From Candidatus Latescibacterota bacterium (GTDB lineage Bacteria > Latescibacterota > CBDEFO01), in NCBI GenBank assembly GCA_965237525.1, contig CBDEFO010000007.1, forward strand, positions 576,001-640,000: 64,000 bases of DNA, read 5' to 3'. This document shows, one piece after another, positions 9,660 through 16,614 of the stretch. Position 1 is the first letter of the stretch. Each line of letters opens with the position of its first letter. The notes below the pieces were generated by a model, which saw only the letters and a list, made by a program, of their open reading frames with translations, did not search any database and had not been told where the DNA came from. A program made the translations under genes and the position numbers.

Positions 9660-9967
9660 GTGTTTATTAAAGTTATTGTTTAACCCCGCTGGGACAGTGT
9701 AGCTCTGGGCTGATTTATTGACTTTAGAAGCCGGTTTATGTCCCACACAGTGGACAAAGGGGGTGTTAATATATCAGCTGATCAAACCAGAGCATCCGTA
9801 AGGGCACTGGCTGAAGCGTAGTAAAAGCGGAAACAGGCAGCGAGGAGACTCCAGCTACGCGGTGATGGTCTCCCGCTCAGCGGGGATCCTAACCTAGAGA
9901 ACTGGAGGCTGGTAAATGTGAAGCCACGTTGAGTCACCGCCTACGGCGCGGCTCGACGTGGCTTCAC
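9660..9967 (+). mobile_element. Probable IS200/IS605 (TnpB-type) right-end relic
   Basis: Terminal hairpin GTGAAGCCACGTTGAG..CTCGACGTGGCTTCAC ending TTCAC, upstream stems, eroded IKVIV/NPAGT, truncates the neighbouring gene. Confidence 0.45.
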
Positions 9968-10423
9968 TTGAGGACGGAAATCAGAACCCATAAGATCAAC
10001 GTTCCAGTTCGGGTCTACTGTGAAGCTGACATACGCCTTATTAACCGGAATCCCTTGATGTCTCTGCTGAAATGTAACATACCAGTTTCCAGAACCTTGG
10101 CTGGCCTCCTTAAACTCAACGTCAGACATATTCACCTTGAGCAGATCTTTGTAATCTGCAATGAAACTTCTGCTTATAGTTTCAACATTGCCTTTTTGCA
10201 GTGATACAGCACCGGCAAAATACCTATCCATCTTGACCCCATGGCCCACTATTCTGTGGGGGCTTTTGGTGATAGGATTCTGAAAGGCAGTAAGCTCGTT
10301 GCCATATATGCCCACGAGCATCTGTCGTTCCAACCCTCTCTGGGCATAGGAAGGACTGTTAAAAGTAAGGGATAAAACTACGCCCAATACTAAAGATAAG
10401 TACGTGCACGTTGAATGTCTCAT
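9968..10423 (-). pseudogene. Secreted protein with FTP-type peptidase propeptide, truncated
   Basis: Signal peptide, VTFQQRHQGIPV; homology ends at the hairpin at 9967. Confidence 0.6.
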
Positions 10424-12174: not shown

Positions 12175-13194
12175 CTACATTTTGCCTTTGCGAAATGCGG
12201 TTATGTATTCCATACAAAATTCGTCTGCCCCAACAAGAGCGTTGTATGCTAACTGGTATTGTGTAGATTGAGTGTCAATATTAGAGATACTTTCAGATTT
12301 GATCTGTAACGGATCTATTATTCCGCTGTCGCACCCGGCGTCTACAGACAAATGGATAAATACTTCGTTTAAGAGCCTCCGGTTGGGCATTCCAAAAGAG
12401 ACGTTGCTAAATCCTCCTGTAATATGAATCTCATCCCCGTAGAGGTCTCTTATCTGTTTGACTGCATCCAGGAAAAACCTCCCGTATCGAGAATCTACGC
12501 CTATGGGGAAGACGAGAAGGTCAACGAACACATCGTTGTGGGCGATGCTGAAGCGTTCGACAATTTCCATCAGCCTCTTTACGTTTTCCACTCTCTCCGT
12601 ATCATCGTCTGGCATTTTAGTTTTACCGAAGGCGGTAGCTATAATCTGGCAGTTTTTCTCCTTTGCCAATTCTACTATGTCGGGGCGTTCCAGAGATGCG
12701 GAGTTGAGGATAGACCCTCCTTTGGAGTAATCATAGACCTCAACACCTGATTTGATATTGTCCGTTGCGGAAGAATCTATGCTCAGGGGCAAATCTACGT
12801 GTTGTTGGATTGTCGGCACTATCCACTCCATAGCCTGAATCTGGACCTGGGGATTCGGTGCTATCTCATCTACATTTACGTCCAGGTAGTGTGCACCAGC
12901 CTCTACTTGCCTTCTGGCTGCGTAAAGGATATACTGCCGGGCTTCCTCCTGATCGTCTTTGTTTACTGATATTCCCTTGTCAACGGCGATCCTAATGTGC
13001 TTTATCTCATTTCGTTGATACTCCTGCGTTTCCTTGTAACTTTCAGGGATTGTCAAGTATCTGACATTCCCTCCAGAATCGGTGAACTTGATAGCTTCAG
13101 TACCGTCTTCCAGCGCTTCGACTCTCCTGCCATCCCTTCTGTAAACTCTGGTTGTATGTATGTTTTCGCCTATTATTATCAGATCACAAGACAC
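12175..13194 (-). CDS. Pterin-binding methyltransferase (AcsE/MetH-like)
   Basis: IIGENI, YLDVNV, PLSIDS, ILNS, GFSNVSFGMP, IIDP. Confidence 0.85.
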   Translation of the reverse strand: MSCDLIIIGENIHTTRVYRRDGRRVEALEDGTEAIKFTDSGGNVRYLTIPESYKETQEYQRNEIKHIRIAVDKGISVNKDDQEEARQYILYAARRQVEAGAHYLDVNVDEIAPNPQVQIQAMEWIVPTIQQHVDLPLSIDSSATDNIKSGVEVYDYSKGGSILNSASLERPDIVELAKEKNCQIIATAFGKTKMPDDDTERVENVKRLMEIVERFSIAHNDVFVDLLVFPIGVDSRYGRFFLDAVKQIRDLYGDEIHITGGFSNVSFGMPNRRLLNEVFIHLSVDAGCDSGIIDPLQIKSESISNIDTQSTQYQLAYNALVGADEFCMEYITAFRKGKM

Positions 13195-14079: not shown

Positions 14080-16614
14080 TCAGGAACGGGTGGCGACAAA
14101 CTTGGAGTCTGGAGCAGTGATGCGGGCTAAAGTCTTAGCCAGGGGATAGGACTGTTCTACCTTTGCCGCTCCCACGCCCACGGGGATAAAGTTGCCCCCT
14201 TGAGCGTCCCAGATGGCCTTGTTGAGACTGTAGCTTCGGTCGCGGGCGTCATCGTACGCAGGATCGGCAAAGACGTCATAAAGACCCTGAATTTCGCCTT
14301 TAGCGTCCAGTTTAATGATCACCGACACAGCTACACCACGACTGTTGACGGTCGCTATCGCATCCTCAAGTGCAAGCGGCGTGGGGAACATATTGTGCGA
14401 CCCGCGTCCGTCCCCCTGAGTCATATAAAAGCCGTCTCTCATAAATAAGTTGAGTGCGTTGGCCAGCGGCTCTACCGCCAGGAGCACAGGATCGTCTTTG
14501 CCGCGATATTCTCCGCCTGTGATTACGGCTAGCTTCTCTGTGGACGCAGAAAGGAGAATATCGCCCAAGCTCTCAAGAACAAGCTGCGCATCCCACTCCT
14601 CTGTGGTTCTCGTCCAGATGCGCTTAAAGTTAAACTTCTCGGTGGCCCCCAGGAGGTTTTGTGCCTGGTGAGCCTCGCTTTCGAAATCCAGAAAGATGCG
14701 CTTGTGTCCTTCGACATCCCAGACCTCGACGACTAATCCCTTTGCGTCTGTCCCCTCCAAGTAATGGTTCAGGCTACCGTCTGCTGTGGTCTTGTTTAGG
14801 CTGTACCAGACTGGGAGATTGAAAGCCGAAGGGCCAGATTTATCTATAGCCAAAAGTCCTACATTAGCAGCTTTGGGCATCGGAAGCTCGGCAAAGCCCG
14901 GCCCTTGGCCAGATACGTTCCCTGCAAAGACGGGCTCAGGCTTGTGCCCCTTTTCTCGTCCTGTCTTCCATTGATTATATGCAGATTTAAGTTTATCTAT
15001 ATATATACGTTCGGATTCGGGCAGAAAATCGGGCAGAAGTTCTATGAACGCATCGTCTATTTCTGCTAATTCTTCAGTTGTTCGCCCCTCTGTCGCATCT
15101 CCCACCAGATCCTGTCCCAAGCCGTACCACTTATACCCGATAATTTCAGCCACCCACACCTGACGGAAAAAGGTCTTATATGCAAAAAGATGAATCGGAT
15201 TGCAGTCAACGCCTTTATCGTGGCTCATCAAAAGGTGTCCGTCGTCTCCCACTTCTAAGATTTTCGACGTTCCATATATAAGGCCTATATTTTTGGCCTC
15301 CTGGAGGCTCGCCTGTGCTACGTAGCGGAAGTGATTTGGCGGTGTGGTATGACCTATCTTTCCACCGCTGTCCGCCTTGATATCTGAGATAGTGAAGATG
15401 GACCGCTCGTTTGCTCTGACGACCACTCGATCTTCATGGTCAGGAATATCCATGAAGCGGTGCGACAGACGTTCGGCCTCTCCAAATGCGCGCCCTTCGG
15501 CGGTCTCGGGATTAAGGTAAGGCTCAAATTCCCCGTGCATTGTCATATAACGGATCAGGTTCCCTGCGTCTTTTTGGAGCCTTCGAGTCTCCGGCCTGTT
15601 CTGGGAGAAGATGTCCTCAACGTCTAGCCCCTGGGGGATGCGGCCCTGGTCGTAGGATTGATACGCGTACGCTGGGACCTTCGCGGTTCCTTCACTTATG
15701 GCTGTACTCTTTGCCTCTTCAAAGCTTACAGGCATAAGCCCCACTCGATATCCGCCGTCTTTACCCCCTGGTCCGAAGTAGAACTCTGCAGTGGACTGTG
15801 TGTACTCCCCTATAGCGGGTAGTCCCGATTGAGAGCGGCCGATTAAAATGGGTGAGAAATTGCCTTCTACCATAGCGGCTGGTTCGTCTTTAAGATCTCC
15901 TTCTCCAAAGCGTCCGCCAACTGCGTATACCTTGCTCAATCTCCATTCGTCGGCATCGGCAACAAGCGATTGCAGTTCATTCATCTGGCCCGGTCCAAAT
16001 TCGTAGGTTCGCACTTGAGATTTAGCGGACCTTAGGTCTTGGATGCTCTCTACGAGGGCGGAAAAATAGTTTCCCTCGATGCGTCTTCCCGATCCTTTAT
16101 CCGGGTTGAAAAATAGATTGAAGAGGGCTCGGTTGAAAAACCCCCAGCTTCCGTTTATGGCCTTTGCCACATAGATCGGTTCTGCGCCTCGCTCGGTGAA
16201 GGGGAAGTCCAAGTATCTTATGCCAAGGGCTTGAACCTGATCCTCAGGATCCATGTCTATTATGCTCTTACCGTCGTCGGGCTGATAAAGTCCCATTTCA
16301 TGAGCCTTTTTCAGAGCCTCTGTTGCCGCTTTGCGCGCCAGCTCAGCGGCACAAGTAGAAGGATTATTGCGGTAAGAGTTTCCGTCGAAGAAGTCCCCGT
16401 TATAAGTCGTAATATGCAGATGGAGATCCCCTCCAAATATGTTGGTCCACGCCCCTTTGAGCGTCCCGTTATCCACTTTGTCCCGCAAAAATTGATCGGC
16501 TACCTGGATGACTCCAATAGGTATATCACCGCCAAGAAGACTGCCCAGATCTATGCTGGCGATAATGACATTTGACTGAGTCGAAGGACGGTTTTCCATT
16601 CCTTTCAATCCCAT
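14080..16614 (-). CDS. Tandem-duplicated class V FBP aldolase/phosphatase
   Basis: Two ~400-aa copies; KADSGG..GH, GDD, YGLGQDL, GNVSGQGPG, DK, EYRGKDDP, RGSH in the C-half; ERGAEP, RSQSGLPAIGE, HGEFEP in the N-half. Confidence 0.85.
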   Translation of the reverse strand: MGLKGMENRPSTQSNVIIASIDLGSLLGGDIPIGVIQVADQFLRDKVDNGTLKGAWTNIFGGDLHLHITTYNGDFFDGNSYRNNPSTCAAELARKAATEALKKAHEMGLYQPDDGKSIIDMDPEDQVQALGIRYLDFPFTERGAEPIYVAKAINGSWGFFNRALFNLFFNPDKGSGRRIEGNYFSALVESIQDLRSAKSQVRTYEFGPGQMNELQSLVADADEWRLSKVYAVGGRFGEGDLKDEPAAMVEGNFSPILIGRSQSGLPAIGEYTQSTAEFYFGPGGKDGGYRVGLMPVSFEEAKSTAISEGTAKVPAYAYQSYDQGRIPQGLDVEDIFSQNRPETRRLQKDAGNLIRYMTMHGEFEPYLNPETAEGRAFGEAERLSHRFMDIPDHEDRVVVRANERSIFTISDIKADSGGKIGHTTPPNHFRYVAQASLQEAKNIGLIYGTSKILEVGDDGHLLMSHDKGVDCNPIHLFAYKTFFRQVWVAEIIGYKWYGLGQDLVGDATEGRTTEELAEIDDAFIELLPDFLPESERIYIDKLKSAYNQWKTGREKGHKPEPVFAGNVSGQGPGFAELPMPKAANVGLLAIDKSGPSAFNLPVWYSLNKTTADGSLNHYLEGTDAKGLVVEVWDVEGHKRIFLDFESEAHQAQNLLGATEKFNFKRIWTRTTEEWDAQLVLESLGDILLSASTEKLAVITGGEYRGKDDPVLLAVEPLANALNLFMRDGFYMTQGDGRGSHNMFPTPLALEDAIATVNSRGVAVSVIIKLDAKGEIQGLYDVFADPAYDDARDRSYSLNKAIWDAQGGNFIPVGVGAAKVEQSYPLAKTLARITAPDSKFVATRS

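Follow-up and report, generated by a model that had tools for sequence, protein, structure and literature searches.

Introduction

Class V aldolase/phosphatases of fructose 1,6-bisphosphate (FBP), here termed FBPA/Ps, are homo-octamers in which the Gln242-His/Ser243 pair of each active site is donated by a partner subunit. They are described as carrying out two gluconeogenic reactions at one site with the help of three mobile loops (PMC4473056). Domains for sugar metabolism have also been reported in an unexpected setting: a preprint describes giant proteins of Omnitrophota, the 'Archaeovorins', whose predicted extracellular regions are listed as containing domains of fructose 1,6-bisphosphatase, TIM, PGI, PGM and aldolase (10.1101/2023.11.21.568195). 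The subject of this report is the gene P0001, located at positions 14080..16614 on the reverse strand of a 64,000-nucleotide stretch of DNA from a Candidatus Latescibacterota bacterium (GenBank assembly GCA_965237525.1, contig CBDEFO010000007.1, positions 576,001 to 640,000), referred to below in its entirety as the window. The gene encodes an 844-residue protein made of two class V copies in tandem, and we consider it probable that the two halves form one composite active site per chain, whose likely product is fructose 6-phosphate, destined for gluconeogenesis. The literature searched yielded no account of a class V enzyme in tandem form, most subscription papers and bioRxiv supplements being outside its reach.

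Results

Two class V copies in one reading frame

The 844-residue protein scored 250 bits against the Pfam profile PF01950 (gathering score 25). The profile covers both halves in three stretches, one on the N-half (profile positions 9-340, E 1.4e-21) and two on the C-half (profile positions 3-102 and 100-329), and the only PDB sequence matches of the protein were the FBPA/Ps of S. tokodaii and T. neutrophilus. The second copy starts at residue 406 (window position 15399), in agreement with an initial sequence-only reading of the window that had placed a boundary between two class V copies near 15400 and expected two profile hits. Each half can be aligned with single-copy enzymes over nearly its full length at ~23-31% identity, and BLASTP no longer aligns one half to the other (best E 0.034). 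Circular permutation was ruled out, as each half is colinear with a whole canonical chain. The tandem arrangement is not an artefact of assembly because a second genome of the same genus (G001) contains an 844-residue open reading frame (ORF) that is 97% identical to it and because an independent run (X6) spans the junction between the halves without an insertion or deletion. Both halves are under purifying selection: in the seven measurable pairs of eight, the eighth being saturated, ratios of nonsynonymous to synonymous substitution rates ranged over 0.09-0.34 in the N-half and 0.06-0.14 in the C-half.

Distribution of active-site residues between the halves

Canonical residues are given here with S. 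tokodaii numbers taken from alignments. We take D12, D53, D54, Q95, D132, D233, D234 and H19 to be metal ligands and K232 and Y229 to be the Schiff-base residues. Close relatives were compared in an alignment of 151 tandems (not dereplicated) and 46 single-copy enzymes, with duplicates (L001-L004, L007), truncated genes (L008, L025, L027), a frameshifted gene (L026) and matches shorter than 820 residues left out of the 151. A distant set comprised 52 modules from 51 proteins, found among the 150 matches listed from a profile search over 1.84 billion representatives. These modules were chosen by the motif YxGKDD, so the residues of that motif are invariant in them by construction. Most distant members are embedded in proteins of about 950-6400 residues. 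All coordinates below are window positions on the reverse strand.

The catalytic set lies in the C-half. Located there are KADSGGKIGH (residues 413-422, with the equivalents of K10, D12 and H19; 15349..15378), GDD (456-458, D53 and D54; 15241..15249), YGLGQD (497-502, Y91 and Q95; 15109..15126), GN (565-566), D591-K592 (D132 and K133; 14839..14844), the Schiff-base loop EYRGKDDP (702-709, Y229, K232, D233 and D234; 14488..14511) and GDGRGSH (734-740, with RGSH at 737-740 and R737 equivalent to R266; 14395..14415). Near the C-terminus, the loop E820-Q-S-Y823 (14146..14157) has its Glu in register and its Tyr two residues off the canonical Tyr348. The C-halves of all 151 close relatives retain K10, D12, H19, D53, D54, Y91, Q95, D132, K133, Y229, K232, D233, D234, R266 and E347. 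The metal ligands as a set are kept in the C-half only, and the Schiff-base residues, K706 (Lys232) and Y703 (Tyr229) in the window protein, are found in every one of these C-halves. In the distant C-halves, K10, D12, H19, D53, D54, Y91, Q95, D132 and K133 are likewise invariant (52/52).

What is missing from the C-half is the motif RxQ(S/H)GxP, which comes next after the Schiff-base loop in single-copy enzymes. Its counterpart is RSQSGLPAIGE in the N-half (260-270; 15805..15837), where Q262 is the equivalent of Gln242. R240 and Q242 are present in 151/151 N-halves, as are G244, P246 and E250. In every one of the 151 C-halves the positions of R240 and Q242 are gapped and no R.Q.G.P motif occurs, and in the distant modules the Gln242 equivalent occurs in 52/52 N-halves and no C-half. 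Other catalytic positions of the N-half have mostly been lost; those of H19 and Y229 are in gaps among the close relatives, and most of the remainder vary. The split is wider than the Gln-Ser loop because two further elements are kept in the N-half only, namely ERGAEP (141-146; 16177..16194), which corresponds to the S. tokodaii Arg121 loop and whose Arg is present in 151/151 close and 51/52 distant N-halves, and F..P (168-171). The latter is part of FFNRALFNLFFNPDKG (159-174; 16093..16140), the equivalent of the canonical FN.P...F.DPF. It overlaps N-P-D-K-G-S-G-x-R (170-178), which is nearly invariant in the N-halves of 122 close relatives, with the DKGS..R positions fully so, and not in the embedded modules. 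The sequence-only reading had assigned the same motifs to the same halves and anticipated that the division would recur in homologues, all of which is borne out by the survey, save that the C-terminal Tyr it listed as retained, although present as Y823, is out of register (E-Y has become E820-Q-S-Y823). An analysis of covariation between the halves (225 sequences, effective number 85 for 844 columns) was discarded, the top mutual-information pairs being mostly invariant columns.

Structure models and a probable composite site

Fold comparisons were based on predicted AlphaFold2 models of the whole chain and of the C-half alone. The N-half (residues 12-390; 15445..16581) and the C-half (406-844; 14083..15399) are each predicted to have the full FBPA/P fold, the former without the metal and Schiff-base residues and the latter with the catalytic set. 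Residues 12-389 matched 3r1m with Z 32.2 (rmsd, root mean square deviation, 3.0 over 330 aligned residues), and the C-half folded alone matched 1umg with Z 33.2 (rmsd 4.8, 339 aligned residues); the best unrelated folds reached only Z 8.7 and 6.0. Two folds of this type, including one in the catalytically degenerate N-half, had been predicted from the sequence. The linker (391-405; 15400..15444) contains the conserved residues P391, D395 and N402. It is ordered in the whole-chain model, which has a predicted template modelling score (pTM) of 0.87, and the relative placement of the two halves therefore appears to be a confident feature of that model. The C-terminal loop (full-chain residues 808-826) had a predicted local distance difference test score below 50 in the C-half-alone model versus block means of 56-72 when the whole chain was modelled, a difference not used as evidence since the underlying alignments were unequal (57 versus 122 rows).

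Since the catalytic residues persist in the C-half and the Gln242 loop, gone from there, persists in the N-half, a composite site is likely, and the protein is likely to be a pseudo-dimer on the strength of its residue pattern. In the mechanism that we propose, the C-half would bind Mg2+ and form a Schiff base through Lys706, condense dihydroxyacetone phosphate with glyceraldehyde 3-phosphate, and then strip the 1-phosphate, all in the manner of the canonical enzyme. In this scheme the N-half would replace the two-fold partner subunit and lend Q262-S263 to close the 6-phosphate end of the site, with its R142/E145 and F168/P171 surfaces probably contributing as well, and Y823 would substitute for Tyr348. 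The N-half would thus serve as a scaffold, being neither a second catalytic site nor a regulatory one.

The same chemistry could also be achieved between chains, with the Gln loop of each N-half completing the active site in an adjacent chain, the octamer being rebuilt from four tandem chains, and the fusion serving only to hold dead and live subunits at 1:1. A site formed in cis cannot be separated from one formed in trans by the residue split alone, and given that the canonical enzyme is an octamer, the two fused copies could correspond to neighbours in the ring instead of two-fold partners. Nevertheless, we regard both the between-chain site and the limited role that it assigns to the fusion as unlikely, since the one-chain model packs the halves against each other at the pTM given above and the linker is short, ordered and conserved. 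The module also lies in the middle of chains of up to 6393 residues, and occurs twice in the protein P0163, settings in which the assembly of a ring is hard to picture.

Sugar metabolism of the host and of other tandem-bearing genomes

The genome from which the window derives (G000; 4.58 Mb, 96.6% complete) contains the tandem as its only class V gene. No match was obtained in it to PF00316 (class I FBPase), PF03320 (GlpX), PF06874 (class III FBPase), PF01116 (class II aldolase) or PF00365 (PFK), all of which matched in controls; with PF00274, no control genome matched, which makes that search uninformative. The two class I aldolase genes of the genome (G000:C8:1648036-1648827, L086, and G000:C3:353441-354191, L087/L088) are both broken, one by in-frame stops and the other by frameshifts and a stop, and G001 carries the same two genes (L182, L183) broken by different lesions. 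Read-through of TAG was ruled out as an explanation for the stops, as TAG ends 388 of 1192 long ORFs and the G001 lesions differ. PPDK, PEPCK, PGK, GAPDH, TIM and PGI were all matched in G000. With no match to another FBPase class, class II aldolase or PFK, and with both class I aldolases broken, the tandem is likely to be the main, gluconeogenic FBP enzyme of this genome, its activity being predicted from the gene content. The aldolase pseudogene on C3 was found to lie ~2 kb from a ~947-residue ORF of the transaldolase family.

A separate class V gene was found in none of 36 other tandem-bearing genomes, and 24 of them had neither class I FBPase nor GlpX, although many of the 36 are incomplete. 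Class II aldolase was matched in nine. In five Acidobacteriota genomes, the only match to PF01791 (DeoC/aldolase family) was of the LsrF type and PFK was not found. PPDK lies directly downstream of the tandem in 8 of 37 loci, all of them from related Acidobacteriota. At one contig edge (L034; G065:C135:16-207), the tandem is directly preceded, on its upstream side, by the initial part of a gene for class I FBPase. In one Acidobacteriota assembly the tandem gene is in three frameshifted pieces (L026:5986-8962), which reflects either sequencing error or a pseudogene.

Origin and spread of the tandem

Free-standing tandems with 58-71% identity were found in Nitrospinota, Poribacteria, Acidobacteriota, Gemmataceae and Anaerolineae, and others with 43-46% identity in Binatia/Thermodesulfobacteriota. 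Within the phylum of the window, the tandem was detected in G000 and G001 only, out of 168 genomes, which points to horizontal gain. The carriers of embedded modules have a different character. By a crude hydrophobicity rule, a signal peptide was called in 45/51 distant carriers versus 2/121 close relatives, the call for the window protein being a false positive. Several of 57 long matches scanned are fused to TIM, GAPDH, PGK, PGI, PGM, transaldolase or PEPCK. Named hosts of carriers are Omnitrophota (L048, P0204) and Elusimicrobiota (L043). All eight class V matches in 201 Omnitrophota genomes were tandems, in ORFs of 1154-2583 residues, and 201 Elusimicrobiota genomes yielded one embedded tandem and one single copy. 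A recurrent (A/S)GLEE motif was noticed in some carriers, with five copies in P0204, three in P0165 (the embedded sister of the window's clade) and two each in P0205 and P0209. P0163 (3495 residues) contains two complete dead/live tandem modules in one chain, each with RGSN for RGSH. A stand-alone single class V copy of 339 residues (P0302), without the Schiff-base loop and also without the partner-loop Gln, looks catalytically dead.

All trees have long branches and were built from subsets of rows. In a tree of halves and single-copy enzymes, the N-halves form one clade and the C-halves another (Shimodaira-Hasegawa-like approximate likelihood ratio test support, 99 each). This indicates a single duplication, and two independent duplications are not needed to account for the data. 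Free-standing forms are nested among embedded ones in a 48-row concatenated tree (support 97/96) and in a mixture-model C-half tree rooted on single-copy enzymes (100/100 and 99/98), and the approximately unbiased test, run with a quick tree under LG+G4, rejected a monophyletic grouping of embedded forms (p 5.9e-5). The earliest-branching group in these trees, clade B, consists of six proteins of 948-1894 residues that have the ancestral G-x-M-R-G-S and E-Y-T and no lid insert (described below), yet already possess the Gln split. Given these traits, the free forms cannot be the ancestors of clade B. None of the shorter N-type matches could be established as a complete stand-alone N-half gene; they look like truncated or frameshifted tandems.

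The nesting of free forms inside the embedded diversity suggests that the free-standing enzyme is a polyprotein domain that escaped and was domesticated; a possible alternative is that polyproteins recruited a free ancestor repeatedly. From the trees, one old duplication inside exported multi-domain proteins would have given rise to a self-contained enzyme, and free-standing copies would have escaped once or twice, spread horizontally and reached the genus of the window. We therefore put forward, tentatively, a broader scenario in which the tandem arose once in exported polyproteins of the Omnitrophota type, where it may have made a self-contained, single-chain unit out of what had been an obligate oligomer. 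It might then have become a cytoplasmic gluconeogenic enzyme in unrelated phyla and here have displaced the aldolases. The recipients in this still uncertain scenario would be Acidobacteriota, Poribacteria, Planctomycetota, Chloroflexota, Binatia, Thermodesulfobacteriota, Nitrospinota and the window's genus.

Departures from the canonical enzyme and other readings

A number of observations weigh against the picture of a gluconeogenic FBP enzyme that left an exported polyprotein with one composite site per chain. The equivalent of Asp287 is absent from the C-half, where the column holds Ser or a gap, and the canonical E-Y348 becomes E-x-x-Y in the C-halves of the tandem clade designated A. That clade alone also has a ~55-residue helical lid insert (507-561; 14932..15096) between the equivalents of Gln95 and Asn105, bringing their spacing to 65 residues versus 10 in 58/60 single-copy enzymes. 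Against the equivalog model NF041126 the protein scored 236 bits, with a cut-off of 520 and a control (P0161) at 571. The canonical form is one ~370-residue domain that contains both the site and RxQ(S/H)GxP, with Asp287 and an in-register Tyr348, and the tandem departs from it on these counts; it is a member of PF01950 that falls below the canonical equivalog cut-off. Global complementarity of the halves was not found either. Among 114 columns conserved in single-copy enzymes, 37 are conserved in C-halves only, 13 in N-halves only, 9 in both and 55 in neither, and the 9 in both compare with 8.9 expected from independence, so the complementarity is confined to functional residues. As for the metabolic role, G000 has three genes of the transaldolase/FSA family and one of the inositol-monophosphatase family that could provide a bypass, and 12 of the 36 other tandem-bearing genomes encode class I FBPase (5) or GlpX (8). 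CinF, a class V homologue with conserved catalytic residues, is described as having lost FBP activity (PMC8740755). Finally, a 798-residue protein with a signal-peptide-like start (P0280) has one complete class V copy with its own RSQG..P loop, indicating that embedding does not force a tandem.

Several of these departures would be expected if the specificity of the enzyme had changed, such that it is a phosphatase only, acts on another sugar bisphosphate (e.g., sedoheptulose 1,7-bisphosphate) or uses a phospho-substrate that is not a sugar. Such a change could apply chiefly to the embedded forms of exported proteins. In addition to the missing Asp287, the shifted Tyr, the large lid insert and the precedent of CinF, the Arg266 equivalent is Asn in 24/52 distant modules, and two genomes with embedded forms (G074, G075) retain an intact-looking class I aldolase-family gene together with PFK. 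Set against this, the Schiff-base Tyr and Lys, the metal ligands and R737 are all invariant in the close relatives, the embedded copies are fused to the central sugar enzymes listed above, and the other FBP enzymes are gone from the host genus. Altogether, we judge a changed specificity to be quite improbable. An allosteric role for the dead N-half pocket in regulating the live half is very unlikely: at least 99% conservation does extend to 93 of 400 N-half positions in 119 free-standing sequences, including D172-K-G-S..R178, and the Asp54 equivalent (D63) is kept in 150/151 close relatives, but D63 drops to 27/52 in the distant modules, the pocket's basic and metal-binding residues vary among N-halves or have been deleted from them, and an alignment of 75 diverse N-halves revealed no conserved polar ligand pocket, the newly conserved P32, G197, G234, V249, G284, A372, P391 and D395 looking structural. 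The interpretation that accompanied the sequence-only reading is supported in part (the presence of two class V copies, the dead but correctly folded N-half, family-wide complementarity at the Gln242 loop and packing of the halves at pTM 0.87), and its suggestion that the dead site was left free for regulation is unsupported.

Genomic surroundings of the gene

The tandem gene stands alone in the window. Genes for moaE/moaD and a Bmp-type ABC transporter lie ~400 bp upstream of it, and a gene for a pterin-binding protein lies ~890 bp downstream. This adjoining gene is of the pterin-binding methyltransferase type (12175-13194, reverse strand). Members of the same Pfam family are found three genes upstream of the tandem in three Poribacteria loci (L009, L012, L013), accompanied there by a RACo activator and a homocysteine methyltransferase. 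Elsewhere in the window, a 160-residue ORF (9941-10423, reverse strand) has a signal-peptide-like start and a weak match to the fungalysin/thermolysin propeptide (E 3e-4); its frame contains no protease domain, and it is possibly a gene remnant. A scan for promoters and terminators returned 5 and 6 sites versus 3.7 and 3.4 expected, which is not above chance. In metatranscriptomes, two marine runs gave four contigs of 151-163 bases on the C-half, too few to show transcription.

Discussion

If the tentative scenario for its origin is true, the tandem is a natural, possibly monomeric FBPA/P with one site, and a domain of giant proteins has been domesticated into core metabolism. The free-standing 844-residue form is a soluble-looking, expressible proxy for a domain that elsewhere is confined to the giant exported proteins of Omnitrophota not yet in culture. 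It bears on whether the sugar-enzyme domains of such proteins are active, a point that the giant-gene preprint, in the text available, leaves open (10.1101/2023.11.21.568195). The arrangement should also permit a clean split-site experiment on FBPA/P because, unlike in the homo-octamer, the active site and the partner loop are separately mutable in the tandem. For genome annotation, the tandem would fill a gap in gluconeogenesis in genomes without class I-III FBPases, where the protein scores below the family cut-off. If it is monomeric, it offers a ready-made single-chain version of a two-reaction enzyme.

The nearest described relatives are the class V FBPA/Ps themselves (PF01950, NF041126; ST0318 structures 1umg and 3r1m and T. 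neutrophilus structures 3t2b-g), which the tandem resembles in the predicted fold of each half (Z 31-33) and in the catalytic motifs of its C-half. It differs from them in having two copies per chain, one of them dead, with the Gln242 loop in the dead copy only, and in its 55-residue lid insert, the loss of Asp287, the shifted Tyr348 and a score below the NF041126 cut-off. Fused pseudo-dimeric enzymes with one dead half are known from eukaryotic PFK, mammalian hexokinase I and the C1/C2 domains of adenylyl cyclase. These share with the tandem a history in which a duplicated domain was fused to its copy and one of the two sites was lost while the dead half stayed necessary; their dead sites became allosteric, whereas no such pocket is evident in the tandem.

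Export and repurposing of a class V homologue with its catalytic residues kept has a precedent in Coxiella CinF (Cbu0513), described as a single-copy, 382-residue protein phosphatase without FBP activity (PMC8740755). Nothing in the window protein points to a protein phosphatase role. The text of the Archaeovorin preprint that was available does not specify the class of FBPase and mentions neither a tandem nor a dead half nor free-standing descendants (10.1101/2023.11.21.568195), and a term search of the available part of a 2026 Omnitrophota preprint returned no FBPase terms (10.64898/2026.06.07.730766). The enzyme set reported for the Archaeovorins is the same as that fused to the tandem module in its embedded relatives, whose carriers of 950-6400 residues may or may not belong to that class. 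The window protein differs from such giants in being a free-standing chain of 844 residues whose fold begins at residue 12.

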